Shown: positions 1-39,262, counted from the first letter of the stretch. The stretch is 44,181 bases of DNA from Betaproteobacteria bacterium (GCA_016790625.1 JAEUNB010000030.1:1-44181); one strand, 5' to 3'. Numbers and translations are program-made. The notes: generated by a model from the letters alone, not told the origin.

Positions 1-884
1 ATCAGCCGCCGGTAGCGCGTGGCGTCGCTGTACATGCTGGCCATTTCGCGCAGTTCGATCACGCGGTTATGCGCATAGACCGTGTTGATCAGGTGCCAGG
101 TGGCGAGGTCGAAATAGACCTTGCCGGGCACGCGCCGCCCGCCGGGGCCGCTCGAACCGAAGCCCAGCTCCGGCATGACCGCGGCCAGGTTCACCGAGTG
201 GTCGAAGTCGGTACCGGCGACGTGGATGCCGTGGTTGGCGAGGATGTCGCGTTGCCGGTCGATCAGCGCGTGGCGGCTGGGGCCGACACGCACCACAGAG
301 AAATCGGACGTGCCACCGCCGATGTCGGCCACCAGTACCAATTGCTCTTCGTCGATGCCCGATTCGTAATCCAGCGCGGCGGCGATCGGCTCATACTGAA
401 ATGCAACGTCGCGGAAGCCGGCGGCTTGTGCAGCGGCGGCCAGCGTGGTTTCCGCCTTGGCGTCGCGCTCGTCGTTGTTGTCGACGAACCATACCGGGCG
501 GCCGACGATGGCGCGGGTGAGCGGACCGTCGTGCTGTGCCTCAGCCACGCGTTTCAGGTGTTTCAGGTAGCCGATCACCACATCCAGATATTTAATGCTG
601 ATGCCGTGGCCGATTTCGGTGGTTTGCTCCATCAGGTCGGAACCGAGGATGCTCTTGATCGAACGCATCAGCCGACCGTCGTAACCATCGACATAGGCCT
701 TGACCGCTTCGCGGCCGAAGCAGCGCGTCTCGTCCTCGGCGTTATAGAACACGGCGGTGGGCATGGTGCGAAAGCCGGGTTCGAGCTCGACCAGTTTCAT
801 GCCTTCGGCGTGCGGGATGCCGATGGCGGAATTGGAGGTGCCGAAGTCGATGGCGCAGTAGTCTGCGTGAGGTGTGGCGGGCAT
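1..884 (-). CDS. Hsp70/actin-fold ATPase, YegD-like chaperone homologue (3' end runs off the window)
   Basis: Open at the left edge, so absent from the ORF track. Reverse translation from ATG (884-882) gives MPATPHADYCAIDFGTSNSAIG...QLVLVADIGGGTSDFSVVRV, carrying the Hsp70-family phosphate-1 (DFGTSNS) and phosphate-2 (DIGGGTSD) motifs. The 69..1001 + ORF is its antisense shadow. Confidence 0.8.
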   Translation of the reverse strand, partial: MPATPHADYCAIDFGTSNSAIGIPHAEGMKLVELEPGFRTMPTAVFYNAEDETRCFGREAVKAYVDGYDGRLMRSIKSILGSDLMEQTTEIGHGISIKYLDVVIGYLKHLKRVAEAQHDGPLTRAIVGRPVWFVDNNDERDAKAETTLAAAAQAAGFRDVAFQYEPIAAALDYESGIDEEQLVLVADIGGGTSDFSVVRVGPSRHALIDRQRDILANHGIHVAGTDFDHSVNLAAVMPELGFGSSGPGGRRVPGKVYFDLATWHLINTVYAHNRVIELREMASMYSDATRYRRL

Positions 885-959
885 GGGAGGCGGGGGCTTG
901 AAACGGGGGACGCGGATTATAGCGGAGCGAAGATGGCGCGGCCAAGTGTTTATTGCGAA

Positions 960-1033
960 AATAAAACTCCAGCACTGGCGCGGCTCTCCGGCCAGAAATG
1001 ACCTGTGAGCCTCGCCAGTGCTGGAGTTTTATT
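960..1033. repeat. REP-like inverted repeat, copy 1 (best copy)
   Basis: Perfect 21-bp arms AATAAAACTCCAGCACTGGCG (960-980) and CGCCAGTGCTGGAGTTTTATT (1013-1033) with a 32-nt loop. It sits 20 nt downstream of the yafY-like stop. The core CGCCAGTGCTGGAGTTTT recurs at five other sites. Confidence 0.85.
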
Positions 1034-1052
1034 CCGTTATGCGGGCTGGTGG

Positions 1053-1745
1053 CTAGCCCGGACTATCTTCGCAGCCTACCTGCCGCAGGAAGTCAGCGAT
1101 GGTCTTGCCCGGCTCGTCGCGGAACTGGCGTTCGCGCACGGTCAGCGTGCGCATGCGATCCAGCCGGAACATGCGGAAATCCTGGCGCAGCTCACACCAT
1201 GCAGCCAGCGTCCAGCGCTCGCCCCAGAAGTGCAGGGCCACGGGGCGCAATTCGCGGCTCGATTCGCGCTTGTCCTCGGTCACATAGTCGATAAACACGA
1301 ACTGGCGCGCGCGGATTGCTTGGCGCAGCGTCTCGAAGCGTTCCGCTACCACGCGATCGATGTGGAAGTCCGGCACGTAGATCTGCGTGGTCTCGAGCGC
1401 CGCGCGGCGATTGTCCGGCAGCACGGCAGCGATTTTTTCCAGCGCGCGCTCGGCGCTGCGCGCAAGCTTCTGCCCACCATAGGCGCCGGCCATGCGCGCG
1501 CCGACCAGCAGCGCCTCAACCTCGTCGTAGTCGAACATCAACGGCGGCAGGTCGAAGCCTTTTTTCAGCGCATAGCCGATGCCGGCCTCGCCCATGATCG
1601 GCACGCCGGACAAAGACAAGTCCTGCACATCGCGGTAAATGGTGCGGTCGGAGACTTCCAGCCGCTGGGCAAGATAGTGTGCCGTGGTCAACCGCCGGCC
1701 GCGCAGGATCTGGACGATTTCAAACAGGCGGTCGGCGCGGCGCAT
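1053..1745 (-). CDS. YafY-family transcriptional regulator (HTH + WYL domain)
   Basis: 230 aa. N-terminal HTH (RLFEIVQILRGRRLTTAHYLAQRLEVSDRTIYRDVQDL) and a WYL-type C-terminal half (PVALHFWGERWTLAAWCELRQDFRMFRLDRM). Confidence 0.85.
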   Translation of the reverse strand: MRRADRLFEIVQILRGRRLTTAHYLAQRLEVSDRTIYRDVQDLSLSGVPIMGEAGIGYALKKGFDLPPLMFDYDEVEALLVGARMAGAYGGQKLARSAERALEKIAAVLPDNRRAALETTQIYVPDFHIDRVVAERFETLRQAIRARQFVFIDYVTEDKRESSRELRPVALHFWGERWTLAAWCELRQDFRMFRLDRMRTLTVRERQFRDEPGKTIADFLRQVGCEDSPG

Positions 1746-2075
1746 CTAAGTTTTCTTCCTGGCCTTGCCCCACTTGCCAATGTCGCTGTCGAATTTCCAG
1801 TTCCACCATTTCAGTTTTTCCGGATCATGCCTGCTGTTTGATGCGTAATAGACCGCGCAGCGGAAGGTATACAGCACGCAGGGGTCCTGATAGCCACCCG
1901 TCATGCCGGCCAGCTGCTTGTACATCGCCTCCGGGCTTTTCCCCTTCAAGTCCGAGATTTTGGTGATGCCCATGTCGATCAGGTCCTGCGCGATGCTGGG
2001 TCCGACGCTGGGAATTTCCTCCAGTTCGGAGCGTTCGCGCTTTGCCGGCCTGGACTTGGCTACCTTAGCCGCCAT
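1746..2075 (-). CDS. Small helix-hairpin-helix protein (Cdd1 'pathogenicity locus'-like HhH family)
   Basis: Starts at the internal ATG (codon 86) of track ORF 1746..2330. MAAKVAKSRPAKRERSELEEIPSVGPSIAQDLIDMGITKISDLKGKSPEAMYKQL... contains an HhH motif. Its stop TAG directly abuts the yafY-like ATG (TAGATG). Its start overlaps the VOC gene stop by 11 nt. Confidence 0.65.
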   Translation of the reverse strand: MAAKVAKSRPAKRERSELEEIPSVGPSIAQDLIDMGITKISDLKGKSPEAMYKQLAGMTGGYQDPCVLYTFRCAVYYASNSRHDPEKLKWWNWKFDSDIGKWGKARKKT

Positions 2076-2433
2076 GGCCTGCCTTGAAATGCGGGTTTTC
2101 GATAATGCCGACGACGTTGTCGAAGGGGGTGAAAAACGAGGCCACTCGAATACCGTCGCCCACATCCGTGATCTCCTCATTGGGTTTTGCGCCGAGTGCA
2201 AGCAGGCGCGCGTATTCGGCGGTGATGTCGGGCGTGCCCCAATAAGTGGAGACGCTGCCCGGGCGCTTATCGTCAGGCCATACGCCCAACTCGTAGCCGC
2301 CGACCTCGAAGCCGACATAAAACGGTTCATTGAAATAGGGAGGATGGCCCGCGACCGAGGTGAACCACTCGACTGCCTTGGGCAGGTCGCCCGGCGGGAC
2401 GTGATAGATGACAGTACGCAGGCCTTGGAACAT
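2065..2433 (-). CDS. VOC (glyoxalase/bleomycin-resistance/dioxygenase) family protein
   Basis: 122 aa. MFQGLRTVIYHVPPGDLPKAVEWFTSVAG...FYVGFEVGGYELGVWPDD...GIRVASFFTPFDNVVGIIENPHF resembles the small paired beta-alpha-beta-beta-beta VOC fold. Confidence 0.75.
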   Translation of the reverse strand: MFQGLRTVIYHVPPGDLPKAVEWFTSVAGHPPYFNEPFYVGFEVGGYELGVWPDDKRPGSVSTYWGTPDITAEYARLLALGAKPNEEITDVGDGIRVASFFTPFDNVVGIIENPHFKAGHGG

Positions 2434-2482
2434 GTTTTCCCCTTTGAAAATCGCTGTGCTGCGAAAAGAATTCTGGACTTAG

Positions 2483-2508
2483 CCTACTGACAACGTATTG
2501 TCAGCAGG
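2483..2508. promoter_or_regulatory. 26-bp imperfect palindrome: candidate operator of the VOC-HhH-YafY operon, or a terminator stem for the upstream gene
   Basis: CCTACTGACAA-cgta-TTGTCAGCAGG, 10/11 matching arms with a 7-bp perfect core (CTGACAA/TTGTCAG). It lies 50-75 nt upstream of the VOC ATG (2433) and 17 nt downstream of the 2525 stop. No T-tract follows it. Confidence 0.35.
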
Positions 2509-2524
2509 TGGCAGTTGAGGCGGA

Positions 2525-3001
2525 TCAGACGTAGGCCAGCATGCGGCCGCACAGAATCACGGAGAGCCAGATCGCGATCGACGCGGCGGTCATCAGCCGC
2601 GCGCTCAACGGTGCAGTGGCACTAGTGTCCCATTCGGTCACGCTGCGATACGGGCCGGCATGGAATGCCAGGGCGTTGCAGCCGGCGAGGAAAATCAATC
2701 CCAGCTTCAGCATGAACACGCGATTGGCAAGGAACTCCGTTGGCTGGGTGGCGAACAGCAGCGCACCGGTCGGCACGACGATCAGGACGGCCCCAAGTGA
2801 AAACGGCAACAGGAATTTCGACAGCGCGCGAACGGAAATGGTCTTCGCCATGCCCAACACACGCAGGTCGAACATCACTACCGAGCCGACGAGGATCACG
2901 AAGCCCCAGATGTGCGCCGTCTCGACCAGCGGAAACAGCCAGGTCGAACTTTTCATCAGCGCCGTCAGCGGGAACTCCGGCGGCGTGATGGGGGCCGTCA
3001 T
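2525..3001 (-). CDS. Four-TM integral membrane protein (DUF6644-like)
   Basis: 158 aa with four hydrophobic helices (WLFPLVETAHIWGFVILVGSVVMF, FLLPFSLGAVLIVVPTGALLF, VFMLKLGLIFLAGCNALAF, LMTAASIAIWLSVILCGRML). It lies 21 nt downstream of 3023..3379. Confidence 0.7.
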   Translation of the reverse strand: MTAPITPPEFPLTALMKSSTWLFPLVETAHIWGFVILVGSVVMFDLRVLGMAKTISVRALSKFLLPFSLGAVLIVVPTGALLFATQPTEFLANRVFMLKLGLIFLAGCNALAFHAGPYRSVTEWDTSATAPLSARLMTAASIAIWLSVILCGRMLAYV

Positions 3002-3022
3002 AATGCGATGAGTTGCTGGCGA

Positions 3023-3403: not shown

Positions 3404-4483
3404 TTAGTGGGCAAAAATCGATAGTGTGTAGTTTCGCAGGGTAACGCCAATTTGTGCGTCACCACTGACCTCGTTGTTGAAGCTGAAATTGTCGATGGCA
3501 TAGTCTGAAAGTTCAGCCGACAGCAAAGGGTCGAAAGTACGAGCCTTTGCCAGTACCTGACGAAAATCTTCCGGACGCAAGCGGAACCTGAATTGCGTAT
3601 TGCCGGCGTTGCAAAAAGCGGGCTCGTCATTGGTGTTGCAGACGAACGATTGTCCCGAAATGCGCAGCCCGAAAGCCGGATTGCTGCGAAAGGTGGTGGA
3701 GACAATGGCGTTGCCGACGCCAAAATCCTTGCCCGAAAAATCATCCTCCGGTCGGGTGGGATGAGGCGAAACGGAGGCTGCGCCGATTGTGAGATAAAAG
3801 TTACGCCGGCTTCGCGTATCGATCAGTTCGATCACCGGATGACTCTGCGCAAAGCTCTGGTCATTGGTCTGGCCCGCAGTCCGGCGGAATGTTTTCACTA
3901 GAATCTCGAATGACAGTTCCAAGTCGCGAGTCACACCATCTCGCCAAGGCATGACGCGGCGATCAACTTCACCACCGGACGGCGGCGTGGTGGTGAATTG
4001 ATATAGCGGATTGACGCTGGTGGCGGGAATCGCCGTGGAACGATCGACGGTGTTGACGTAAAGCCCAATCTCGCTTGAGGCGGCTTTGGTCTGGGCAAAG
4101 GAGCGGGCATCGATTTCATACAGCGTGCCGCCGGTCTGGGCGGTATGCACCTGGCCGCTGGTGCCAGTCCGTCGCGTAAAGGGAATGACCAGTGGATCGG
4201 TTGGTACTTGCTGGTCCAGCGGAATAATGCGCGGCATTTCCGGCTGCTGGTTGATGCCGACGCAGCCGCCGAGGCCGGTAACCTCATCCTCGCACAAGGC
4301 GCTTCGTACCACGCGCGCTGGTACCACAGTGTATGTCGCCACCAGAGTTTCGGTTGGCGTGGCCGGTGGAGGCGGCGACGTCGGCGCAGAGTCGCCGCCA
4401 CCTCCGCCACAGCCCACCAGCATCGTCGCAATCATCGTAGCCGCGACAAGAAGACGGTGGGCTGGGAAAATCGGCCGAGCCAT
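3404..4483 (-). CDS. Lipoprotein of unknown function
   Basis: Starts at the internal ATG (codon 44) of track ORF 3404..4612. MARPIFPAHRLLVAATMIATMLVGCGGGGGDSAPTSPPPPATPTE has an LVGC lipobox and a Gly/Pro linker. It begins 8 nt downstream of the rsgA stop. I recognise no family for the remainder. Confidence 0.7.
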   Translation of the reverse strand: MARPIFPAHRLLVAATMIATMLVGCGGGGGDSAPTSPPPPATPTETLVATYTVVPARVVRSALCEDEVTGLGGCVGINQQPEMPRIIPLDQQVPTDPLVIPFTRRTGTSGQVHTAQTGGTLYEIDARSFAQTKAASSEIGLYVNTVDRSTAIPATSVNPLYQFTTTPPSGGEVDRRVMPWRDGVTRDLELSFEILVKTFRRTAGQTNDQSFAQSHPVIELIDTRSRRNFYLTIGAASVSPHPTRPEDDFSGKDFGVGNAIVSTTFRSNPAFGLRISGQSFVCNTNDEPAFCNAGNTQFRFRLRPEDFRQVLAKARTFDPLLSAELSDYAIDNFSFNNEVSGDAQIGVTLRNYTLSIFAH

Positions 4484-4491
4484 ATGAACGG

Positions 4492-5382
4492 CTACTTCTT
4501 CCAATCCGGGTGTGCTTCCCGCAGTTCCTGCTGCTGTTCGATCAGCGCTTGATAAAACGCCATTCTGCCGGCGTTGACCTTGCCTTGTTCGGCGGCCGCC
4601 ACCACGGAGCATCCCGGCTCGGTCAGATGCAGGCAGTTATTGAATTTGCAGGTGCCGATATAGGGACGGAATTCCGGCATGGCGAACGCAATGTCCTCAT
4701 CGCTCATGTGGAACAAGCCGAAGGACTGCAGGCCCGGCGAATCCATGATGGCCGAGTCTTCATCAAGGTGATAAAGGCGGGTATAGGTGGTGGTGTGCTT
4801 TCCGGAGTCGAGTGCCTCCGAGAAATCGCCTTCTTTCGCAACGTCACGCATCACCAGATTGTTCACGGTGCGGGACTTGCCCATGCCGGACTGGCCGACC
4901 AGCAAGGTGCGTTTGCCTTTGAGTAGCGGACGCAAGGGTTCAATATCGAACTTGGCCGACATCGGCAGCACCTCATAACCGATTTCTTCCAGATGAGCAA
5001 TGCTTTTGCGCGCCGCTTCAAACTCCGGCATATCCTTTTTGTTCAGCATAATCAGCGGTGCGATTTGCGCGGCATCGCAGGCCACCAGACACATGTACAG
5101 GAAGGTTTCACTGAACGTTGGGCGTGGCGCAATGATGACGATGGCCTGATCGATATTCGCTGCAAGCGTCTTCTGCCGCCATGCATCGGTGCGGAAAAGC
5201 ACATTGCGGCGCTCGTGCACTTCGTCGATGCGCGCATGGCCCGGACTGGTGATACTCAATTCGACTTCATCACCACAGGCCACATCCTGCTTCTTGCCTT
5301 TGCGCACGCACACCAGTTGAGTGCGGTCCGGCAGCTCTGCCAGATATTCGCGGCCAAAATCGCCGGTGACGAGGGCGCGCAT
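4492..5382 (-). CDS. rsgA: Ribosome small-subunit-dependent GTPase A
   Basis: 296 aa with an OB-fold N-terminus, circularly permuted GTPase motifs (LNKKDM ... VGQSGMGKSRTVNNL) and a C-terminal Zn knuckle (CKFNNCLHLTEPGCSV). Confidence 0.92.
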   Translation of the reverse strand: MRALVTGDFGREYLAELPDRTQLVCVRKGKKQDVACGDEVELSITSPGHARIDEVHERRNVLFRTDAWRQKTLAANIDQAIVIIAPRPTFSETFLYMCLVACDAAQIAPLIMLNKKDMPEFEAARKSIAHLEEIGYEVLPMSAKFDIEPLRPLLKGKRTLLVGQSGMGKSRTVNNLVMRDVAKEGDFSEALDSGKHTTTYTRLYHLDEDSAIMDSPGLQSFGLFHMSDEDIAFAMPEFRPYIGTCKFNNCLHLTEPGCSVVAAAEQGKVNAGRMAFYQALIEQQQELREAHPDWKK

Positions 5383-7673: not shown

Positions 7674-10600
7674 ATGGCGTTTTTTGTGCGCAGATTGGCC
7701 TCGGCCATTTGCCTGATCCTAGCTGCGGGTTTGTTGTCGATAAGCGCTGGTGCGCAGGTTCCCTCGCTGGCATGGCAAAAGTCCATTTACGGCCATGGCA
7801 ATACCGACGCCGTACCCGGTGGCGCGGACTTTGTGCTCGGCAAGCGGTCGATGGCGGTTGACGCGAGCGGCAACGTCTACGTTACCGGCAGCAGTTCCAA
7901 TGGTTCGAATGCCGATTTTCTGACGATCAAGTACAACGCCGCCGGCGCAATCCAATGGCGTGCGGTGGCGAATGGCAGTGCCAACAGTGCGGACGTGGCT
8001 TATGCACTGGCGCTCGATGGTTCCGGTAATGTGGTGGTGACGGGCACCAGTTATGCCGCCGGGTTGGCCAACTATTTGACGGTCAAGTACGACAATAACG
8101 GCAGCGAGTTGTGGCGAGCCACGTTCAATGGCGCGCAAAACGGTGACGACGAAGCTTATGCCGTGGCGATTGATGCCGGCGGAAATATCTATGTCACGGG
8201 CACATCGTTCAACGGAACGGCCTACGATTTTGGCAGTGTGCTGGACTTCCTCACAATTAAGTACAGCCCGTCCGGAGCACAGCTCTGGACCCGGCGCGTG
8301 ACCGGCACCGATCGAGGCGTCGATCGGCCTAACGCCATCGCGGTCGATGGCAGCGGCAACGTCGTCGTCGCCGGCTATAGCTACAGCGGTAGCAGTGCCG
8401 GCAACGATTTTCTGACGGTCAAGTACGACACCAGTGGCAACGAGCTCTGGCGGGCGACGTTCGATGCGGCAGGCGGCAGCGATCTGGGCTTTGCACTGGC
8501 CATCGATGCGAGCGGGAATGTGTACGTTGCCGGTCAGGGGTTCAATGGAACGGACAACGACTACCTGACGATCAAGTACGACGCGAGCGGCGCCAAGCAG
8601 TGGCACCGCATGGCCAACGGAACCGGCAATGCTGGCGATATTGCCTATGCGGTGGCGGTGGACGCAAGCGGTAATGTCATCGTTCATGGCCAGAGCGATC
8701 TCGCCAGCGGCGGATTGCCTGGCCCGGCCAACCCCAAGTACATGACGGTCAAGTACGACGCGGCAGGGACCGAGCTGTGGCGTGCGACAACGAACGGCTC
8801 GGGTACCGGCTACGATATTTCATCCGCCTTAGCGGTGGATGCGGCAGGCAATATCTATGTGACAGGCTATGACGGCAGCGGCGTGTTGCTCAGCCTGAAA
8901 TATGGCCCGGCCGGCGGCGCGCCTGCATGGAGCAGCAGCATCGCCGGCGCGGGCAGCGCCAATGGTGCGGCCCTGGTATCGACGGTCATCGACGGTACCG
9001 GCAACGTTCATGTCGCCGGATATCAGGGGAGCGGAACCGGCAATGACTTTCTGGTTGTCAAGTACGACGCCAGCGGCGCGGAACAGTGGCGCGCCAATGA
9101 GGGACAGCATATTGGAATCAGTACGGCGTTTGCGTCGGATTTGGTCGGGCGTGATGCGATGAAGGTAGATGCGGCCGGCAATATCTACATCACCGGGCGC
9201 AGCAACTATGGTGCCGGCAGCGATTACCTGACCGCCAAGTACGACCTGTCCGGCAATGAGTTATGGCGCGCGATGGCCAACGGCCCGGGCAACAATATCG
9301 ATCAGCCTTATGCATTGGCAGTGGACTCCGGCGGCAATGTTTACGCGACCGGCGACTCCTATGCCAACAGCCGCAGCGGCATGCTGACGGTGAAGTACAG
9401 CGCGAGCGGCATCGAACAATGGCGCGTGGTGGCCAGCGATGGTGCAACGGAAAGTGTGTCGGCGCGCGTGCTGGCGGTCGATTCGGCAGGCGACGTCATC
9501 GTTTCCGGCTTGAGCTTCAACGGTTTCGACTTCCTGACGGTGAAGTACAACGCGAACGGCGTCGAGCAATGGCGTGCAAAGGCCAATCGCGCTGCCGACG
9601 GCATCGATACGCCGGTTGCCATGCTGACCGATGCCGCGCGCAACGTATATGTCACTGGGCGCAGCGCCGACGGCATCAACAATGGCTACCTCACCGTCAA
9701 ATACAACGCCAGCGGACAGGAGCAGTGGCGTGCGCTGGAAAATGCTTCCATCGACTATGTGGCCAAGAGAAATTATGCTATGGCACTGGATGCCAACGGC
9801 AATCTGGTGGTGGCGGGCGATGCGGTCGTCAAGTACGACGGCACCGGTGCTTTCTTGTGGAGAGTGGAGCCCACCTTTCAACCACAGCAGGTCGCCATCG
9901 ATGCCAGCGGAAATATCTTTATGGCCGGTACGCGTGGCATGGCGGCCAAATACAATGCCGCCGGTGTCGAGTTGTGGAGTCGCGCAGTAAGCGGCACGGC
10001 AGATGCCAACGATGCGATTCGCGCCATGACCATCGACGCAGACAGCAATGTCTACGTCAGCAATCAGAATTACGCGTTGGGAAATACCGACTACATGACC
10101 GTCAAGTACAACGGCGCCGGAGCGGAGCAGTGGCGAATCGTCACGCCGACCCAGGGGGGCGCTTATTTTTCCGCCGCTGCGTTGGCGGTAGATGCTGCGC
10201 GCAGTGTGATACTGGCCAGCAATTCGATCTCGACCGGCAGCCCGACCGCAATGTCGCTCAGCAAATATCGCGTGGTGACACCGGCACCGACCATCACGGC
10301 GGCTGTCGCCGGCAACAGCCGCGCGACGGTTACCTTCCTGCCACCGGCAAGCGATGGCGGCGTACCGATTGTCAGTTACACCGTGTCATGCGACCCGGGC
10401 ATGGCGGCGACGGGTCCTGCCTCTCCCATTGTTGTTGCCGGATTGAGCAATGGCGTTACCTATCAATGCTCGGTAACGGCCAACAACGCGCTGGGCGCCA
10501 GCCTGCCTTCTGCCGCGCTGAGCGTGACACCTTCGGCAACGGCGCCGCTGGTGCTGATCGACGTGGTGTCGCGCAAGACCCATGGCAGCGCCGGAGATTT

Positions 10601-11069
10601 CGACCTGCCACTGGAAACACTGCCGGCCATTGGTGGCGCAGTATCGGTTGAGCCACGCGCAATCGGCGCCGGGCACACAGTCGTCTATCGGTTCAGCGAT
10701 ATCGTTTCGAGCAGCGGGACCGCTTCCGCAGTCGGTGCGCAATCGATGCCGGTGGGTACGATTTCGTCGGTAACCGTTTCGGACAACAGCGTGCTGGTTA
10801 CGTTGACCGGCATTGCCGATGGTCAACGGGCAACCGTGTCGCTCAGCGGCGTTAATGTCAGCACCAGCGCGACGGTGTCGCTGGGTTTCCTGGTGGGCGA
10901 CGTAAACAGCTCACGCTCGGTCAACGCCAGCGATATCAGCGGTGTGAAGGCGCGCATTGGCCAGACAGCCAACACGTCAAATTTCATGTTTGATTTCAAC
11001 ACTTCGGGCGTTATCAATAGCGCCGATCAGTCTGCCGCAAAGGCCCGATCCGGCGCCGTTCTTCCTTAG
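7674..11069 (+). CDS. Large secreted SBBP-type beta-propeller repeat protein with C-terminal FN3 + beta-sandwich + dockerin-like module
   Basis: 1131 aa. Signal peptide (MAFFVRRLASAICLILAAGLLSISAGAQ) followed by about 15-16 repeats of the pattern A.AVD.SGNVYVTG....DFLT(V/I)KY(D/N).SG.E.WR. Next comes FN3 (NSRATVTFLPPASDGGVPIVSYTVSC), then VSRKTHGSAGDFDLPL..., and it ends with two dockerin-like loops (GDVNSSRSVNASDISGVKA, FDFNTSGVINSADQSAAKA). Confidence 0.85.
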   Translation: MAFFVRRLASAICLILAAGLLSISAGAQVPSLAWQKSIYGHGNTDAVPGGADFVLGKRSMAVDASGNVYVTGSSSNGSNADFLTIKYNAAGAIQWRAVANGSANSADVAYALALDGSGNVVVTGTSYAAGLANYLTVKYDNNGSELWRATFNGAQNGDDEAYAVAIDAGGNIYVTGTSFNGTAYDFGSVLDFLTIKYSPSGAQLWTRRVTGTDRGVDRPNAIAVDGSGNVVVAGYSYSGSSAGNDFLTVKYDTSGNELWRATFDAAGGSDLGFALAIDASGNVYVAGQGFNGTDNDYLTIKYDASGAKQWHRMANGTGNAGDIAYAVAVDASGNVIVHGQSDLASGGLPGPANPKYMTVKYDAAGTELWRATTNGSGTGYDISSALAVDAAGNIYVTGYDGSGVLLSLKYGPAGGAPAWSSSIAGAGSANGAALVSTVIDGTGNVHVAGYQGSGTGNDFLVVKYDASGAEQWRANEGQHIGISTAFASDLVGRDAMKVDAAGNIYITGRSNYGAGSDYLTAKYDLSGNELWRAMANGPGNNIDQPYALAVDSGGNVYATGDSYANSRSGMLTVKYSASGIEQWRVVASDGATESVSARVLAVDSAGDVIVSGLSFNGFDFLTVKYNANGVEQWRAKANRAADGIDTPVAMLTDAARNVYVTGRSADGINNGYLTVKYNASGQEQWRALENASIDYVAKRNYAMALDANGNLVVAGDAVVKYDGTGAFLWRVEPTFQPQQVAIDASGNIFMAGTRGMAAKYNAAGVELWSRAVSGTADANDAIRAMTIDADSNVYVSNQNYALGNTDYMTVKYNGAGAEQWRIVTPTQGGAYFSAAALAVDAARSVILASNSISTGSPTAMSLSKYRVVTPAPTITAAVAGNSRATVTFLPPASDGGVPIVSYTVSCDPGMAATGPASPIVVAGLSNGVTYQCSVTANNALGASLPSAALSVTPSATAPLVLIDVVSRKTHGSAGDFDLPLETLPAIGGAVSVEPRAIGAGHTVVYRFSDIVSSSGTASAVGAQSMPVGTISSVTVSDNSVLVTLTGIADGQRATVSLSGVNVSTSATVSLGFLVGDVNSSRSVNASDISGVKARIGQTANTSNFMFDFNTSGVINSADQSAAKARSGAVLP
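7854..10260 (+). repeat. Tandem coding repeat array (about 150-180 nt period, about 15-16 units) encoding SBBP beta-propeller blades
   Basis: The motif ...ctgacggtcaagtacgac... (LTVKYD) recurs with variants through 7920-10100. Protein-level KY(D/N)..G...W occurs about 15 times. Confidence 0.8.
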
Positions 11070-11081
11070 CGGAAAATCACT

Positions 11082-11148
11082 AAACACTAGAGCTGGCGCG
11101 GCGCTCAAGAGCCTTTCGTGCCAGAGGCCGCGCCAGTGCTGGAGTTTT
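11082..11148. repeat. REP-like inverted repeat, copy 2 (left arm degenerate)
   Basis: Right arm GCCGCGCCAGTGCTGGAGTTTT (11127-11148). Left arm AAACACTAGAGCTGGCGCGGC (11082-11102). It starts 13 nt after the SBBP gene stop. Confidence 0.7.
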
Positions 11149-11321
11149 GCACGCCGCATCAGGCGCCAACAATGATCCGGTGATGCACCGAACTTGCGTT
11201 TCCGGATAGGCTGGCTGTATCGCAAGCGAGTTTGGCACCGTCTTCGCTGACAATCGGACATGCTGCAGAAAATGTCTTATCGCTGCTGCTGCCACCGATA
11301 AACCTGCCATAGGTCCGTCAG

Positions 11322-14300
11322 ATGATGACAATTTTCGTCAAGCTCCTGCGTCGCGCTGCAATCGCGTTGTGCGTTACCGCACACCTGCCGCTTGCTGCCC
11401 AGACCATTCCGCCGATTCCCACCGGGCATCCACGCATCCTGCTGGTGGGGGCGGAGTTGCAGCGGTTGCGTGAAGATCTGAACAACGGGGCGGCTTACGC
11501 GACCCGCTTCCGCTCCATGGTAGACAACGCGGTCGGCGGCGCCAACATCTACGACTACAAGCCATGGTATTCGGCCATGATTGGCGTGATTCGCGGCAAC
11601 ACCACCTATCCGCAGTACTGCGCACACGCGGTTAACCGTACCGAGGCATTCGTTGTTTCTGAAGAAGCCGTCATTGCCAGTGGGCAGCGGGCAACGGTGT
11701 CGTACGACGTCTACCTTGAGGTCGGCGATCTGATCGGCAATGTGATGCTGGTGTACGACTGGTGTTACGACGTTTTGACGCCGACGCAGCGGGCACGTTG
11801 GCTGGACTATTCAAGTCGTGCTGTAACCAACGTCTGGGATCCCCCCAATGCGCGGTGGGGCAGCGTTTCACACCCATGGAACGGATGGTCGATCAACAAT
11901 CCGGTCAACAATTATTACTACTCATTTCTGCGTGCGACCATGCTTTACGGAATCGCGGCCAAGCATGATCGTGCCGATGCCGATACGTGGTTGACCCAGT
12001 TCCGCACCACCAAATTGAATAATCAGTTGGTGCCGCTGTTCAATAGCGATCTTGCCGGCGGTGGATCGCGCGAAGGCACCGGTTACGGTACCGCGATGAA
12101 GGGTTTGTTTCACCTCTACTACATTTGGGAAAAGACTACGGGTGAGCGCATTGCCGACCTCACCACCCATACCGCATCGAGCATGCCTTACCTCGTTCAC
12201 TCGATGATGCCGACGCGGGATCGTATTGCGCCAATCGGCGACCACGCTAGGGACTCCACGGCGACTTTTTATGACTACCAACGCGAATCGCTGATGGCGT
12301 TGTCCACGTTGTATCGCGGCTCGCCAATGGCCCGCCGTGTGCGAGCCGAGTTGGCAGCGTCGACGGTTCCGCAGATGCAGGACTCATTCAATATTGTCTA
12401 TGACTATTTCTACGGTGGCACCGATGCCGGGACAGCCGCCAATCTGAACACGGTGTATCGAGGTGCCGGCACCGGACATCTTTTTGTGCGCTCGGCGTGG
12501 ACGACGAATGCAACCTGGTTGGGTTTTTTGACCGGGCCTTACACCGAGTCGCATGCCCATCCGGATGGGCTTTCGCTTCTGCTATTCAAGAACGGCTGGC
12601 TGGTCAACGACGCCAATATGCAGTCGCATAGCGGCTTGCAGAATGTGCAGGAAGCTCACGCACTGGTGACGCAACGGGTGGGCGGCACGGTCGTCCGGAT
12701 GTACGAGACCACCTCGTCCAGCGCCCAATTGACCGCGCTTTCACAGCGGCCACTGTATCTGTACGCTGCCGCGAATCAGGGAACGTTGTTCAATCACCCA
12801 AGTACGGGCAATCCCGGTGTGCAGTCGAAGCGGGAAATTGTTTATGTCAAACCGGATGTGGTTGTCGTTTTTGATCGTGTGCAATACACGCCGGGCAGTT
12901 CGGTCAAAACCTTTCAGTTGCCGACCCCTTACTTGCCGACGATCAGCGGTCGCACAGCCACCGTTGGCAATGGTGTGAGCAGCCTGCGCTTGCACGCTGT
13001 CGCGCCTGCCAGCGCGACGTTGAGTACAACTTCCTACGCCGCCCTCGATCCCGATTTCACTGGTGGTGGCCATCGGATTGATGTCTCAGTGACGGGCAGC
13101 GGCGAAACCAAATTCATGAACGTTCTCTCCATCGACAACGCCGCCGCCACGGTTACAGGATCGCCAACCGACAGCGGCGAGGTCACCATTACATTGACTG
13201 ACGGACGCAGTGTGTTGCTACGCTTCAATGCGTCGGCCCCCGGCGGTACGATAGAGATTCGCGATGCTGGCGGCCAGGTAGTGGTATCGGAACCACTGGC
13301 CGGCACGGTGGAGACGATTGCGGAAACGATACCGACGCAGGAAACGCTGACGGTCAGCAAGACCGGGACTGGTGGGGGCACGGTCAGTTCGTTGCCAAGT
13401 GGAATCAACTGCGGCAGCACTTGTTCCGCTGTGTTCAATAGCGGCACCGGCATCACGTTGAGTGCGATTCCGAACATTGGCTCCAGCTTTGCGGGCTGGA
13501 GTGGTGGTTGTTCCGGTACGGGAAACTGCCAGATTACACTCGCCGGTGCGACGGCAGTTTCAGCGATATTTACGCTGATTCCGCCAACAGTACCTGGCGC
13601 GCCCACTGCCTTCATGGGAACCGCCGGCAATCAGCGTGTCATCGTTGGCTTTGCGCCGCCCGCAATAAACGGTGGCGCACCGATTACCGGCTACACCCTG
13701 ACCTGCACGGCGGGAAGCTTTACCGGCAGCGCCACCGGTGCGGCATCGCCACTGGCGATAGGCGGCCTGACCAATGGCACGGCCTACGATTGTTCGGTGA
13801 CGGCAAGCAATGCGGTTGGCAGTGGCGCGGCATCCGCGCCAATTTCGATAACGCCTACTTCTGGTGCAACCTTGACGCTGGTCGGCGCGTATTCACGCAA
13901 GACGCACGGTGCAGCGGGGCCGTTCGATTTGCCGCTGACCCTTGGCGAGGGAATCGATGGTGCCATCACCGTGGAGCCGCGCAGCGAAGCCAACGGCCAT
14001 ACGCTGTTGTTGCAATTCAACGATACGGTCGGCTCCGTCGGTACGGTATCGGTGCTTGATGCATCGGCAACGATTGCCGGCAACGCAACCGCATCGGCGT
14101 CCGGTTATGTCGTCACCGTTCCGATTCAAGGCATAGCGGATGGCAAGCGGGTAACGGTCACTGTCAACGGTGTGAACGGCGGGCCTGCGTTCAGCGTCGC
14201 GCTCGGCTTCATGGTCGGGGACTTCAATCACACCCGCGCCATCAACGCCAGCGATATCAGCGCGATGAAGCAGCATGCGGTACAAGTCGTCAACGCACAG

Positions 14301-14390
14301 AACTACTTGTTCGACGTGAACGTCGATGGTCTGATCAATGGCGCCGATATGTCGGCAACCCGCACTCGATCGGGCAGGGTTTTCAACTAG
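11322..14390 (+). CDS. Secreted heparinase II/III-like polysaccharide lyase fused to InlB-B-repeat-like, FN3 and dockerin-like C-terminal modules
   Basis: 1022 aa. Signal peptide (MMTIFVKLLRRAAIALCVTAHLPLAAQ) and an N-terminal GHPRILL motif. ESHAHPDGLSLLLFKNGWLVNDANM resembles the heparinase II/III H-x-H-x-D region. 13344-13577 encodes TLTVSKTGTGGGTVSSLPSGINCGSTCSAVF...FAGWSGGCSGTGNCQITL (divergent InlB B-repeat type). The C-terminal 270 aa are homologous to the C-terminus of 7674..11069. Confidence 0.8.
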   Translation: MMTIFVKLLRRAAIALCVTAHLPLAAQTIPPIPTGHPRILLVGAELQRLREDLNNGAAYATRFRSMVDNAVGGANIYDYKPWYSAMIGVIRGNTTYPQYCAHAVNRTEAFVVSEEAVIASGQRATVSYDVYLEVGDLIGNVMLVYDWCYDVLTPTQRARWLDYSSRAVTNVWDPPNARWGSVSHPWNGWSINNPVNNYYYSFLRATMLYGIAAKHDRADADTWLTQFRTTKLNNQLVPLFNSDLAGGGSREGTGYGTAMKGLFHLYYIWEKTTGERIADLTTHTASSMPYLVHSMMPTRDRIAPIGDHARDSTATFYDYQRESLMALSTLYRGSPMARRVRAELAASTVPQMQDSFNIVYDYFYGGTDAGTAANLNTVYRGAGTGHLFVRSAWTTNATWLGFLTGPYTESHAHPDGLSLLLFKNGWLVNDANMQSHSGLQNVQEAHALVTQRVGGTVVRMYETTSSSAQLTALSQRPLYLYAAANQGTLFNHPSTGNPGVQSKREIVYVKPDVVVVFDRVQYTPGSSVKTFQLPTPYLPTISGRTATVGNGVSSLRLHAVAPASATLSTTSYAALDPDFTGGGHRIDVSVTGSGETKFMNVLSIDNAAATVTGSPTDSGEVTITLTDGRSVLLRFNASAPGGTIEIRDAGGQVVVSEPLAGTVETIAETIPTQETLTVSKTGTGGGTVSSLPSGINCGSTCSAVFNSGTGITLSAIPNIGSSFAGWSGGCSGTGNCQITLAGATAVSAIFTLIPPTVPGAPTAFMGTAGNQRVIVGFAPPAINGGAPITGYTLTCTAGSFTGSATGAASPLAIGGLTNGTAYDCSVTASNAVGSGAASAPISITPTSGATLTLVGAYSRKTHGAAGPFDLPLTLGEGIDGAITVEPRSEANGHTLLLQFNDTVGSVGTVSVLDASATIAGNATASASGYVVTVPIQGIADGKRVTVTVNGVNGGPAFSVALGFMVGDFNHTRAINASDISAMKQHAVQVVNAQNYLFDVNVDGLINGADMSATRTRSGRVFN

Positions 14391-26681: not shown

Positions 26682-26831
26682 GAATGACTTGATAAAGATG
26701 GGCTGACACAGATAAATTCTGTGCGGTAAAATGTTTACATAATTTGCGCGGCAGTTGGAACGATCTGGCTCTTGGACGGATCCGCCGTTCGCAACTACAG
26801 CATAACGCACTATCGAAACACCGGAGACCAC

Positions 26832-27632
26832 ATGGGACTGCTCGACGACCTCAAGAAAGAGGCCGACACCCTCAAAAATCAGGAAGCGGCTCGCACGCAA
26901 TCCATCAAGGCCAACGCGGCTGCGGTGGATCGCGCCCTGCGCAAGACCTTTCACTACATGAACGAGCTGTTCAAGCAGCTCAATGTGGTCAAGCCCGCGT
27001 GCCCTCGAACCTACGATTTGCAAACCGTGGGCAAGATTGATGGCTTGGTGCAGTCGGATTACCGCATTGAGTTCCGCACCTCGCAGCGCGAAAACGCCGA
27101 GCATTACGAAAATCTGACTGTCACCTTCAAGCGCAGCAAGCCGGAGCAGATGACGGTAAAACGTGAGGCTGAGCAGATTGAGCGATTCCGCGATCTGCTG
27201 TGGCAGAACAATATGCGCTTTACGTCCGAGCCGTTCCGCAACGAGCGCCGCGTGATCATCATGGAAGTGTTCAAGATCAATTGCGACGTGATTTGCGGTG
27301 CTGAAATCGTCGGTGATTACGATAGCGGCGCAATCCGTTTCAAGCTGAAGAATGTCGAGGATTTCGGCCCGACGGTCTACACCCTGGAACCGGATTCGGT
27401 GAACGACCAATCTCTGGAAGACTTGGCCAAGCTGTTTATCGGCAAGGACTCCAATTTCAAGAACTACAACCGGCGTCCGGCGTTCAATCCGAGTGCGACC
27501 GGCCAGTTTGCCAAGACTCAGCCCAAGGTTCCCCAGTACATGGCCAATCCGGTGCCTGAGCGTGAGGAAGAAGAAAAGAAAAGCGGTTTGTTCGGCTCGC
27601 TGAAATCGGTGTTCAAGAAGCCATCTGAATAA
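26832..27632 (+). CDS. Hypothetical cytoplasmic protein, no family recognised
   Basis: 266 aa from an ATG with GGAG 7 nt upstream (codon 21 of the track ORF). Third-codon-position GC is high and the composition is balanced: [40 protein letters not shown]...; acidic/Lys-rich tail [24 protein letters not shown]. No TM helix or signal peptide. Confidence 0.7.
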
Positions 27633-27647
27633 GCGGTACAAATAATG

Positions 27648-32694: not shown

Positions 32695-34545
32695 TTGAAC
32701 GTTTCGGCAATCGTCGACAAAGGGCTGAAACTGCGTACGTCGCAGAACATCGTCCAGTTGGCAGTGGCGATTTTGCTGTTTTCGTTCTTGTTGCGCGTGC
32801 CGACCACTGAGCTGGCAATTCTCAGCGTGCTTGAAAGACTGTCATTCGACTTGCAGATCAAGCTGCTGCGCGAAATACGTCCTCAGCCGGCCGCGGTCGA
32901 ACCGGTCTTAATTGGCATTGACGAAGGTACGGAGGATGCATTCGAGGAGCCGTTGGCGATGTGGCATCGGCATCTGGGGAAGACCATGCAGGCGCTGGCC
33001 ATTGCCAAGCCAAAGCTGGTGGGAATGGACGTGGTGTTGCCACCGAAATCGTTCGACAAAATTCTGCCGGGTCTCGATTTTGCGTTTGTCGTTGGATTGA
33101 GGAGATTGCAGGATGTCGCGCCGCTGGTGGTGGTGAACACAGTTGATCGGACCGGCAAACTGGCCTCCATTCACCCGCCTTTTCTCCGCATGCTCGGGGA
33201 CGATGCGTTTGGCCTTGATAAGCACCTTGAAGACCCTGATCGCGTGTCGCGGCGCTTCAGCGAGAGCGAGGTGCTGATAAAAGGCGCTGACTTTCCAACG
33301 TTTGTCGGACGCATTGCGCGTGTGCTCGGGCGCGAAGTGCAGGAAGGCTATATCGACTTCACGGTAGGCGGTCTCGTCCAGTATGTGCCGATCCAACAAG
33401 TGATCGGCTGGCTGGAGGCCGGCGATATCGAACAATTGCGGCGCCGTTTTGGCGGGCGAGTGGTTTTGATTGGCAACGTAACCCAGACCCAGGATCGCTG
33501 GAATCTGCCGGTGCCGTTGTCGGACTGGGAGCGGCTCAACTCAGGTGAGCTCAAGCTCAATCAGCCGGGTGTCATGGTCCATTTCCAGAGCCTGCGCAGC
33601 ATGTTGGGCGATGGTTTGATCGTGCCAATACCGGTCTGGGTGAAGTGGTCAATCTGCGCACTGCTGCTTACGTTTGTCTTCGTGCCATCCAACTGGCGCA
33701 CTTATGTGTTCGCGTTCCTGGTTGCACCGATTCTGTTTTTTGTCATTTCAGTGACCCTGATCACAGCGAAAATTCTGATTCCGGCCGTAACCTTTCTCGT
33801 GTTGCTGTGGATTTCGGTTATGGTCGGCGCGGTCGCGGATGGCACACGAACCTTGCTGGAGAAGAATCGGCTTAAGCGGTCATTTTCCGGCAGTGTTTCC
33901 CCTGCGGTCCTGCACGAAATGCTGGCGGGAAACCTGGCGGGAGGCGTATCGGCAAAGACGGCGGAGATATGCGTGATGTTCAGCGACATTCGTGGTTTTA
34001 CGGGGTTGTCCGAAACACTCTCCCCCGAAGCGGTCACCAGCCTGCTGACGCGCTACTTCGACAGCATGGTGAAATGCGTGCACCGCCACGACGGCACCAT
34101 GGATAAATTCATGGGTGACGGCATGATGGTGCTGTTTGGCGCGCCGAGGCGGGCGGGCAATATTTGCGTAAACGCCGTCAATTGCGCCTTCGATATGGTG
34201 GAAGAGCTCAAGAAACTCAACGAGGAGTTCGCGGCCGAAGGGCTGCCCCACGTCGAGATTGGAATCGGCATAAACTACGGCAAAGTCGTGGTTGGCAATA
34301 TCGGCTCGACCGAACGGCATAACTATTCAGCTATCGGCGACGCGGTCAATGTGGCATCCCGGGTTGAGGGATTGACCAAACGGCTGGGAAAGCCGATTGT
34401 GTTTACCGATTCGGTCAAAGAGCAGTTGGGTCAGGGGTTCGACATGATCGATTTTGGCGAGCAGCCGATAAGAGGACATAGTCCCATGCGGCTGTGGGGT
34501 GTGCAGGCGGTACCACCAAGACTGGCGGCGCCTGCGGGGCATTAG
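32695..34545 (+). CDS. CHASE2 sensor-domain class III adenylate cyclase
   Basis: 616 aa, TTG start 5 nt after AGGAGG. N-terminal TM helix, then a CHASE2-like extracytoplasmic region (VLIGIDEGTEDAFEEPLAMWHRHLGKTMQALAIAKPKLVGMDVVL), then a block of about three TM helices (nt 33640-33850). The cyclase domain carries FSDIRGFTGLSE, DKFMGDGMMVLFGAP and YSAIGDAVNVASR. Lys in DKFMGD and Ser in YSAIGD suggest ATP specificity (class IIIb-like). Confidence 0.85.
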   Translation: MNVSAIVDKGLKLRTSQNIVQLAVAILLFSFLLRVPTTELAILSVLERLSFDLQIKLLREIRPQPAAVEPVLIGIDEGTEDAFEEPLAMWHRHLGKTMQALAIAKPKLVGMDVVLPPKSFDKILPGLDFAFVVGLRRLQDVAPLVVVNTVDRTGKLASIHPPFLRMLGDDAFGLDKHLEDPDRVSRRFSESEVLIKGADFPTFVGRIARVLGREVQEGYIDFTVGGLVQYVPIQQVIGWLEAGDIEQLRRRFGGRVVLIGNVTQTQDRWNLPVPLSDWERLNSGELKLNQPGVMVHFQSLRSMLGDGLIVPIPVWVKWSICALLLTFVFVPSNWRTYVFAFLVAPILFFVISVTLITAKILIPAVTFLVLLWISVMVGAVADGTRTLLEKNRLKRSFSGSVSPAVLHEMLAGNLAGGVSAKTAEICVMFSDIRGFTGLSETLSPEAVTSLLTRYFDSMVKCVHRHDGTMDKFMGDGMMVLFGAPRRAGNICVNAVNCAFDMVEELKKLNEEFAAEGLPHVEIGIGINYGKVVVGNIGSTERHNYSAIGDAVNVASRVEGLTKRLGKPIVFTDSVKEQLGQGFDMIDFGEQPIRGHSPMRLWGVQAVPPRLAAPAGH

Positions 34546-34572
34546 CAGTTTGGGATGTTTTTTCGGGAGACC

Positions 34573-35427
34573 ATGATGAATACAAAACTGATACTGGCAG
34601 CAACGGCGTTTGCCTCGTTCGCACTCACGACGCAGGCGCAGAGCGGCATTGCTTTTATTACCGACGTCAAAGGCGAAGCGGCCATGGATGCGGGCAAGGC
34701 GACGCTGATGGCGGAGCTGAAAAAAGGCGCCCGGGTCACTTGCGCCAAGGAATGCATGGTCGGTGTGATGTATCTGCTGTCCGGCAAAGAGTATGTGCTT
34801 AAAGGGCCGGGAGACTTCGTGGTTGGCGACAACGAGGTTTCGGCCAAGATCGGCCCGCCGCCAACCGTGCGCGAGACAAAATGGAAAGTGTCGTCGCAGG
34901 TTGTCGCGCAAACCGCGCAGTCTTCCAGCGCATCGATTCGCATGCGCAGCCTGGGTGGCGGCAATAAGGCAGAGGCCCCGTTGCCGGCCGAGCGCCTGAT
35001 TTATCCGCGCGACACCAAGGTGGCAACACTGCAGCCGGCCTTCCGCTGGGCCTCGGCCAACGCCAAGGGACCGTTCGAGTTCGAACTGAAGGCCGCCGGC
35101 AGCGCCAAGCCGGTGCACAAGGCGAAGTCAAGCTCGCTCGGTCTCACCTTGCCCGGCAATGTGCGGCTGCAGCCGGACATGGAATACAGCTGGGTGGTGA
35201 AATCCGGCGCCGTGGACGTGGGCATGACGACGTTCAAGACCCTGCCGACGCATGCGCTGGAATTGACGCAGAAACGCAAGCCCGACGACAAGGCGCCATT
35301 TTCGGACTGGCTGCTGTTTGCCCTGACGCTGAAGGATGTAAACGCTGATCAGGATGCGGCGGAAGTATGGGCCAAGCTGGCCAAGGAGCGCCCGGACTTG
35401 CCGGAATTGGCGGCATTGGCAAAATAG
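34573..35427 (+). CDS. Secreted protein of unknown function: FecR-like N-terminal half, DUF928-like C-terminal half (tentative)
   Basis: ATG 27 nt after the cyclase stop, with GGGAGA upstream. Signal peptide MMNTKLILAATAFASFALTTQAQ. N-terminal half GIAFITDVKGEAAMDAGKATLMAELKKGARVTCAKECMVGVMYLLSGKEYVLKGPGDFVV. C-terminal half has ATLQPAFRWASANAKGPFEFELK and LQPDMEYSWVV. The family resemblance is from memory only. Confidence 0.7.
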   Translation: MMNTKLILAATAFASFALTTQAQSGIAFITDVKGEAAMDAGKATLMAELKKGARVTCAKECMVGVMYLLSGKEYVLKGPGDFVVGDNEVSAKIGPPPTVRETKWKVSSQVVAQTAQSSSASIRMRSLGGGNKAEAPLPAERLIYPRDTKVATLQPAFRWASANAKGPFEFELKAAGSAKPVHKAKSSSLGLTLPGNVRLQPDMEYSWVVKSGAVDVGMTTFKTLPTHALELTQKRKPDDKAPFSDWLLFALTLKDVNADQDAAEVWAKLAKERPDLPELAALAK

Positions 35428-35455: not shown

Positions 35456-35496
35456 AACGGCGTTCCGACGTGGTCGGTGCGCCGTTTTTTGCTTTT
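35456..35496 (+). terminator. Rho-independent terminator
   Basis: AACGGCG-tt-CCGAC-gtg-GTCGG-tg-CGCCGTT followed by TTTTgcTTTT. It starts 29 nt after the 35427 stop. Confidence 0.75.
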
Positions 35497-35566
35497 AGAC
35501 ACGATTGAGTCATCGCTAGGGGGCACGATTTGCGCAATAATCGGGAGAAATACCTATAGCAGTCTT

Positions 35567-39238: not shown

Positions 39239-39262
39239 TGCACAGAATTTATCACGACGCCC

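Follow-up and report, generated by a model that had tools for sequence, protein, structure and literature searches.

An immunoglobulin-like sandwich paired with a dockerin: a candidate docking module on exported proteins of uncultured Betaproteobacteria

Background

Docking through cohesins and dockerins is best understood in the cellulosomes of Gram-positive bacteria, and the role of dockerins outside cellulolytic bacteria is largely open. In a type I dockerin, each calcium loop presents its ligands at positions 1, 3, 5, 9 and 12 and is followed by an alpha-helix, and in the cellulosomal representatives the symmetric pattern of the two repeats goes with a dual binding mode. The described systems closest to the one reported here are the type I dockerins exemplified by Xyn10B of C. 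thermocellum (1OHZ/2CCL; PF00404), the X module plus dockerin (XDoc) of CipA (2B59, 3KCP) and the FIVAR-dockerin of C. perfringens with its X82 cohesin (2OZN/2JNK); non-cellulosomal cohesin and dockerin modules across bacteria and archaea were reportedly surveyed by Peer et al. in 2009. The present work deals with an NCBI contig of a betaproteobacterial metagenome-assembled genome (MAG; GCA_016790625.1, JAEUNB010000030.1:1-44181), whose whole length of 44,181 bp is called the window below, and in particular with two neighbouring open reading frames, ORF A and ORF B, whose products end in a shared block made of a fibronectin type III (FN3) domain, an immunoglobulin (Ig)-like beta-sandwich and a dockerin. 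An initial annotation of the window had taken this block for a shared module borne by different heads, which fits what we found: it has thousands of relatives, many of them in one genome and on unrelated heads. In the proteins described here, an Ig-like domain that is covered by no family model forms a permanent pair with a dockerin, in thousands of clusters and with a dozen or more copies in a genome, among uncultured members of the Betaproteobacteria that come from sludge, bioreactors and biofilters. A literature search yielded nothing relevant on dockerins in Usitatibacter or Betaproteobacteria, nor on these proteins.

Results

The two ORFs, A (7674..11069, 1131 aa) and B (11322..14390, 1022 aa), are both on the + strand in head-to-tail order with 252 nt between them, and encode proteins that are large rather than giant, as they had first been called. 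BLASTP with the full proteins gave a single significant alignment, between residues 871-1130 of A and 760-1021 of B (E 8e-66), in which 126 of 263 columns were identical (48%), with 65% positives and 4 gaps. The next-best segment had an E value of 0.14 and, since nothing beyond the shared block did better than that, the N-terminal parts are unrelated. The Smith-Waterman score of the block was 628, compared with 55 +/- 9 for 300 shuffles (z = 64), and both this figure and the E value of 8e-66 reject a chance or low-complexity similarity. Identity was even along the block, amounting to 51% in the FN3 domain, 46% in the Ig-like domain and 50% in the dockerin. At the DNA level, the codon-aligned identity of the two modules was 55% (38% at third codon positions), so that the duplication must be old. 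Identity to the module of ORF A reached 61% among modules from other genomes and was 47-48% for that of ORF B. A recent duplication or a gene conversion is thus rejected, and the two copies are old paralogues of an already diversified family. No third copy of the module was found in the window by a six-frame motif scan. These results bear out much of the initial annotation, which had described an end-to-end alignment of some 265 C-terminal residues (263 by our count), unrelated N-terminal parts and a moderate DNA identity pointing to an old event, and which would have been refuted by an alignment no better than low-complexity background; every pair of motifs quoted there was also present at its place.

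The domain architecture could be assigned along both proteins. ORF A starts with a predicted Sec signal peptide (7674..7754, +; MAFFVRRLASAICLILAAGLLSISAGA followed by Q) that has a basic n-region, a hydrophobic core and an A-x-A site, and continues with SBBP/delta-60 beta-propeller repeats, for which Pfam SBBP gave an E value of 7.9e-29 and NCBIfam gave matches to LipL53-like SBBP and delta-60 repeat models under the equivalog cut-off. The shared block follows, with the FN3 domain at 10293..10526 (+; aa 874-951; Pfam fn3 28.3 bits in the whole protein and 31.5 bits in the isolated module, with a cut-off of 25), the Ig-like "SRKTHG" beta-sandwich at 10551..10895 (+; aa 960-1074) and the dockerin at 10896..11066 (+; aa 1075-1131; Pfam Dockerin_1 over 1075-1120, 30.0 bits with a cut-off of 22.9). 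ORF B also begins with a predicted Sec signal peptide (11322..11399, +; MMTIFVKLLRRAAIALCVTAHLPLAA followed by Q), both peptides having been read from the sequence. Its head is weakly heparinase-II/III-like (NCBIfam HepB, E 3.3e-4; heparinase III 4mmi in the PDB, E 0.026), and a divergent InlB B-repeat (Flg_new_2) lies just upstream of the shared block (13350..13580, +; aa 677-753; Pfam PF18998, E 1.2e-8, 35.2 bits). The block itself comprises an FN3 domain at 13626..13850 (+; aa 769-843; Pfam fn3 29.0 to 32.5 bits), the sandwich at 13875..14216 (+; aa 852-965; 46% identical to that of ORF A) and the dockerin at 14217..14387 (+; aa 966-1022). Across the two proteins the fn3 model (PF00041) scored 28.3 to 32.5 bits against its threshold of 25, and the succession of FN3, beta-sandwich and two dockerin calcium-loop repeats proposed at the outset is upheld by Pfam, by an AlphaFold2 model and by profile matches to solved dockerins. 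In a sister assembly, relatives of both proteins (P0382, at least 90% identical to ORF A, and P0384 for ORF B) are encoded together on a 50,117-bp contig.

Several lines of evidence identify the C-terminal domain as a dockerin. Dockerin_1 (PF00404) passed its gathering threshold in ORF A (30.0 bits), in the isolated module of ORF B (24.2 bits) and in 43 of 50 full-length relatives; for the whole ORF B protein the match (966-1011) was borderline, at 22.8 bits just below the cut-off of 22.9. The family profile matched the PDB dockerins 2ccl_B (E 1.8e-5), 1ohz_B (9.8e-5) and CelS 2mte (1.5e-4), and weakly 2jnk_A (E 0.046). It also matched 2b59_B, the chain of CipA that carries the X module and the type II dockerin, with an E value of 7.3e-5 over chain residues 43-155, the alignment beginning within the X module and extending through the whole dockerin (E 0.076 in a single-sequence search). 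The total score of that match, 25.8 bits, was not above that of dockerin-only chains (27.8 bits); because the dockerin carries the score, the sandwich can be called X-module-like in position and packing rather than an established homologue of X modules.

Both window proteins have two tandem repeats of about 22 residues, each made of a 12-residue calcium loop and a helix. The loops are DVNSSRSVNASD (10899-10934, +) and DFNTSGVINSAD (10992-11027, +) in ORF A, each followed by a helix, and DFNHTRAINASD (14220-14255, +) and DVNVDGLINGAD (14313-14348, +) in ORF B. Conservation was computed over 324 distinct dyads, that is, pairs of sandwich and dockerin. Both repeats followed the consensus D-V-N-x-(S/T)-(R or G)-x-(V/I)-N-A-S-D-I-S-x-V-K-A-R-S-G, with D1 conserved in 99-100%, N3 in 85-90%, S/T5 in about 90% and D12 in 98-99%; on the helices, K17 reached 95% in either repeat, R19 88% and 94%, and G21 90% and 94% in the two repeats, and the linker between the repeats had 9 aa in 304 of the 324. 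This conservation means that the calcium-ligand positions and both helix faces are strongly constrained. The dockerin of ORF A fits the consensus well and that of ORF B retains all loop ligands. The proteins end in ..KARSGAVLP (ORF A) and ..RTRSGRVFN (ORF B), and neither end has a hydrophobic helix.

The sandwich, about 115 aa between the FN3 domain and the dockerin, had no match in Pfam or NCBIfam. Its invariant residues are S-R-K-x-H, V-E-P-R, G-H, one further R and G-F, all retained in ORF B. An AlphaFold2 model of the last 179 residues of ORF A, built on an alignment of 83 sequences, reached a predicted local distance difference test (pLDDT) value of 96.7 and a predicted template modelling score (pTM) of 0.90. 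It contains nine strands (residues 9-120; pLDDT above 90) and helices at 133-140 and 164-172, and the sandwich (9-120) is contiguous with the dockerin (123-179) and packed against it, the pTM of 0.90 applying to the pair. The model thus confidently predicts that the two domains form one rigid, compact unit. A Foldseek search of the PDB with the dyad model retrieved only generic Ig-like folds (titin I-set, CopC, amylase C-domain) with E values of 1e-3 or worse, and there was no cohesin fold among the matches. The conserved unit is this dyad of about 170 aa, and the FN3 domain is a frequent but optional spacer, since it occurs in 16 of 50 full-length relatives. At the least, the sandwich deserves a family model of its own; public annotations call the relatives "dockerin type I domain-containing", "fibronectin type III domain-containing" or "hypothetical".

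The family extends far beyond the window. A search by word index, with the C-terminal 179 residues of ORF A as query, returned 217 proteins, those with a named organism coming from Usitatibacteraceae or Betaproteobacteria MAGs, and a scan of one genome per species gave 147 confirmed stretches. Counts of lineages and loci rest on the best 80 of these 147, and the figures per MAG are lower bounds. All 80 were from MAGs of Betaproteobacteria, Burkholderiales, Usitatibacteraceae or Rhodocyclaceae, with at least 14 copies in one MAG (JAYVXF), at least 9 in another (JANNRY), at least 8 in a third (JBKJMK) and at least 5-6 in several others. In these loci, proteins ending in the module ranged from 214 to 2,125 aa, and two or three module genes stood side by side, as they do in the window, in 13 cases. 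Among the 50 full-length proteins, the heads included fn3 (16), RCC1 (9), Kelch (3), GSDH (3) and FG-GAP (3) domains, lactonase-/YncE-like propellers and He_PIG, and RHS and CHRD heads were found among the 217 proteins. A profile of the sandwich only, run against 1.84 billion representatives, matched 3,095 clusters at E 1e-3, 1,246 at 1e-10 and 342 at 1e-30. The dockerin directly followed the sandwich in all of the best 150 of the 3,095, and among these matches the pairing is obligate. The initial annotation had counted it against a binding module if the block were confined to these two proteins and had no partner; the 3,095 clusters show that it is not so confined, while no partner was found in the window or among the sampled neighbours.

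The position of the dyad is not fixed. It lies at the extreme C-terminus in about 90% of the proteins, but in some 14-16 of 140 new representatives (about 10%) it is N-terminal, starting about 28-50 residues in, right after the signal peptide and with the head following, and in a few of the 140 it is internal. Proteins with an N-terminal dyad were found in independent assemblies, and one of them (P0230) appears to coexist with C-terminal ones in a single MAG (contig JBDTSU010000038.1).

Some neighbours of dyad genes were considered as possible binding partners. A family of proteins of about 255 aa consists of a signal peptide, a domain of about 65 aa with a triple "S.NF" motif and the dyad (L058:5752-6543, L071:5776-6531, L054:2188-2952 and L051:971-1738; also P0004, P0049, P0055 and P0080). 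The 65-aa domain weakly matches PamT, a pilus protein of the candidate phyla radiation (NCBIfam NF058579, E 1e-6, far under the cut-off); the PamT pilus is said to have been described in a 2026 bioRxiv preprint. The genes of this family lie directly downstream of those for fibre proteins with collagen repeats and a Peptidase_S74 (endosialidase-chaperone) domain, which have no cohesin and were rejected as partners. Likewise discarded for having no cohesin were proteins of about 1000-1250 aa with He_PIG, fn3 and Big_3_5 domains encoded directly downstream of dyad genes. The He_PIG/fn3/Big_3_5 proteins end in a second lineage-specific C-terminal module, a tandem of two domains of about 120 aa with the motif "DMWWAG..ENGWG" (L018:3960-4682, L069:4074-4796, L072:4723-5445, L029:6740-7237, L074:5989-6459 and, on the minus strand, L015:1812-3113), and in several MAGs their start codon overlaps the stop of the dyad gene. 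This "WWAG" tandem, absent from the window, has 394 relatives with heads such as cytochrome c553, plastocyanin and "chitinase". It had no sequence match in Pfam or the PDB, its AlphaFold2 model has a pLDDT of 93.1, and a Foldseek search of the PDB gave only weak matches to lipocalin-/nitrophorin-like barrels, none of them convincing. With a fold that does not resemble a cohesin, and serving in its own right as the C-terminal module of many heads, it was rejected as a cohesin-like partner. A lipoprotein-like ORF of the window (3404..4612, minus strand, 402 aa, starting ..MLVGCGGGGGDS..) was also dropped, having no Pfam or other family match and no relative by tblastn in the 80 related loci. No processing or transport gene was found to recur beside dyad genes.

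The genes that surround ORF A and ORF B, identified by Pfam scans, include those for RsgA, an M48 peptidase, CorA, PhoX, a patatin-POTRA protein and AcrB/HlyD, and indicate a Gram-negative chromosome. The sequence of the window is present in metagenomes of bioreactors, sludge and biofilters, which are biofilm settings. On the + strand, the ORFs at 69..1001, 1005..1841, 1903..2490 and 2541..3011 have no family matches and an odd composition, while the minus-strand ORFs at 1053..1745 (regulator-like), 1746..2330 and 2525..3001 (membrane protein) resemble real genes; the long + strand ORFs at 69-3011 are probably shadows of the latter. There are two genes for patatin-like phospholipases (17393-19642 and 38327-40672, both on the minus strand), the former fused to POTRA as in outer-membrane-associated patatins. 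An 818-aa ORF with a TTG start (25185-27641, minus strand) has FGGY kinase domains only from residue 324 on, and is either over-extended or carries an unrecognised N-terminal part of about 320 aa. Three consecutive + strand genes encode a CHASE2-sensor adenylate/guanylate cyclase (32695..34545), a 290-aa product of no known family (34555..35427) and a caspase (Peptidase_C14) with MORN repeats (35477..37747), and may represent a cassette for signalling or of the cell-death type.

Between ORF A and ORF B, a GC-rich inverted repeat at 11093-11136 (CTGGCGCGGC ... GCCGCGCCAG; 10-bp stem, 24-nt loop) begins 24 nt past the stop of ORF A and is followed by a short T run, as a possible candidate terminator that the consensus scan missed because of its long loop. 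In the DNA run X1, Logan contigs break or cross-join at the module copies (window 10594-14226), with joints 10594>14203, 10907>11127 and 11147>13037, which looks like confusion in the assembly graph among paralogous module sequences rather than a real rearrangement. As for transcription, one RNA run gave a single 247-nt contig within ORF A, too little for a claim of expression.

Discussion

We put at roughly 55% the probability that the shared block is a modular C-terminal appendage, in which an FN3 spacer precedes a two-domain docking unit that brings many different heads onto a common receptor. Docking is suggested by the placement of the dyad at either terminus, its obligate pairing, its copy number, the diversity of its heads and the symmetric conservation of its helices, and we infer that this two-fold symmetry has the same meaning as in the dual-binding type I dockerins. 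The proteins would be exported by the Sec pathway through their predicted N-terminal signal peptides, and the dockerin, to judge from its invariant ligand positions, would fold around two Ca2+ ions. The dyad would then bind non-covalently to a common receptor, either cohesin-like or some other conserved partner, on the cell surface or in the biofilm matrix. By analogy with cohesin-dockerin complexes, propellers, lyase-like enzymes, Ig-repeat adhesins and cytochromes could in this way be displayed on one platform. The Ig-like domain may take the part of an X module by stabilising the dockerin and perhaps enlarging the interface. That the partner is a cohesin is something we infer only by extension of this analogy.

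A number of observations weigh against docking, and chief among them is that no receptor was found, which is why we place the figure no higher. No cohesin (PF00963) came up when ORF A, ORF B and the remaining likely genes of the window were scanned with Pfam, in agreement with the initial annotation, which had seen no cohesin-like partner there. Nor were cohesins found in the neighbours conserved beside dyad genes, in some 650 kb of sampled flanks, or in the families represented in at least 2 of 46 secreted neighbours (those with a signal peptide), single-member families being outside the view of this last comparison. Of the domains recurring in downstream neighbours, the one modelled, "WWAG", does not resemble a cohesin, and the Foldseek search of the PDB with the dyad did not retrieve X-dockerin structures. 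In ORF B, the first dockerin helix departs from the consensus (MKQHAVQ, where the family has VKARSGQ). The evidence throughout is computational and, to our knowledge, many non-cellulosomal dockerins have no known partner.

The missing cohesin, both in the window and in the 650 kb of flanks, would be expected if the dockerin fold worked without a protein receptor, either as a calcium-dependent binder of a polymer of the envelope or matrix, such as lipopolysaccharide or exopolysaccharide, or simply as a calcium-stabilised terminal cap that aids extracellular folding or solubility. Heads that are mostly non-enzymatic propellers and adhesin-like repeats rather than carbohydrate-active enzymes (CAZymes), together with a biofilm or sludge habitat, agree with this idea, and the invariant H, H, E, R and K of the sandwich could form a ligand site. 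However, K17, R19, S20 and G21 are near-identical on both helix faces across paralogues that are about 50% identical, as in a shared protein interface, one would not expect a purely structural cap to persist as an obligate pair of domains on unrelated heads in their thousands, and the dyad matches no carbohydrate-binding family. We regard this explanation as possible, though on the doubtful side. A different view of the missing receptor is that dyads associate with each other, one protein's dockerin binding the Ig-like domain of the next, in a homotypic mesh that needs no scaffold. Among the matches listed the two domains are never apart, and the dual symmetric helices could pack with one face in cis and bind with the other in trans. 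AlphaFold2 nevertheless places the sandwich against its own dockerin in a compact monomeric unit, there is no sign of oligomerisation and the Ig-like domain has no cohesin-like fold match, so that we hold such a mesh to be very improbable.

The position of the dyad bears on yet another proposal, a sorting or secretion signal read by a dedicated outer-membrane export or attachment machine, as the C-terminal beta-sandwich domain (CTD) of substrates of the type IX secretion system (T9SS) is. The extreme C-terminal location in most proteins, the many copies per genome within one lineage and the conserved last residues (..KARSG.VLP) would all suit a signal of this kind. Against it, about 10% of the proteins carry the dyad N-terminally, right after the signal peptide, or internally, and these appear to share a MAG with C-terminal ones. 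The conserved tail is moreover the second dockerin helix, a transmembrane helix, a basic tail and a sortase-type motif are all lacking, none of the sorting-domain models of NCBIfam matches, and no processing or transport gene recurs beside dyad genes. The secretion tag that the initial annotation had named as an alternative is weakened on the same grounds, the more so as both window proteins have ordinary predicted signal peptides of the Sec type. We consider a sorting signal improbable, and a docking module more likely than a secretion tag.

Returning to docking, one may go further and suppose that Usitatibacteraceae-like Betaproteobacteria run a large non-cellulosomal docking system, in which dozens of exported proteins per cell would be held on a receptor that is not a classical cohesin, the "SRKxHG / VEPR / GH" domain would be a new family that aids recognition, and the "WWAG..ENGWG" barrels encoded beside some dyad genes might join the network. 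As a whole this is a tentative picture and rather unlikely to hold in full; if true, it would amount to a new principle of surface or matrix assembly in Gram-negative bacteria. If a receptor exists, even the simpler docking module would offer a Gram-negative route to the display or networking of many exported proteins, with a bearing on the architecture of biofilms and flocs in wastewater and, possibly, as a source of orthogonal docking pairs for protein engineering.

Comparison with the described systems places the dyad close to several of them and identical to none. With the type I dockerins it shares the two repeats of about 22 residues, each with its 12-residue calcium loop and helix, a strong internal two-fold symmetry, a usually C-terminal place on exported proteins with varied heads, and significant profile matches. 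Unlike them, it belongs to a Gram-negative betaproteobacterium, and a dedicated Ig-like domain always stands before its dockerin. Its loops have Ser/Thr at position 5, and the first of them has Arg at position 6. Its heads are mostly propellers and adhesin-like repeats instead of glycoside hydrolases, and neither the window nor the sampled neighbours yielded a cohesin partner. It is not part of a cellulosome, because no scaffoldin was found and the heads (SBBP, RCC1, Kelch, FG-GAP, GSDH and Ig repeats) are not CAZymes, only ORF B being weakly lyase-like.

The likeness to the XDoc of CipA lies in an Ig-like sandwich fused directly to a C-terminal dockerin, modelled here as a rigid unit, and in a family profile that, in 2b59_B, covers the dockerin and some of the X module, with the score coming mainly from the dockerin. 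However, a genome has XDoc on one scaffoldin or a few, where it anchors a whole complex, whereas the dyad is on many proteins per genome and its helices are symmetric, type I-like rather than type II. The FIVAR-dockerin of C. perfringens resembles it in acting outside cellulose degradation and in having an accessory domain directly before the dockerin; lineage and accessory domain are different, and the dyad has far more paralogues per genome. With C-terminal sorting domains (T9SS CTD, PEP-CTERM) the dyad has in common that it is restricted to a lineage, that a genome has many copies of it, and that it mostly forms the very C-terminus of exported proteins whose heads are unrelated. In contrast to them it is a bona fide dockerin that also occurs N-terminally, matches no NCBIfam sorting model, and shows neither their strict C-terminal position nor the PEP-CTERM combination of motif, transmembrane helix and basic tail. 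Set among these systems, and with the probability given above for docking, the dyad would best be described as a non-cellulosomal, X-dockerin-like docking module of a very large and unstudied betaproteobacterial family.

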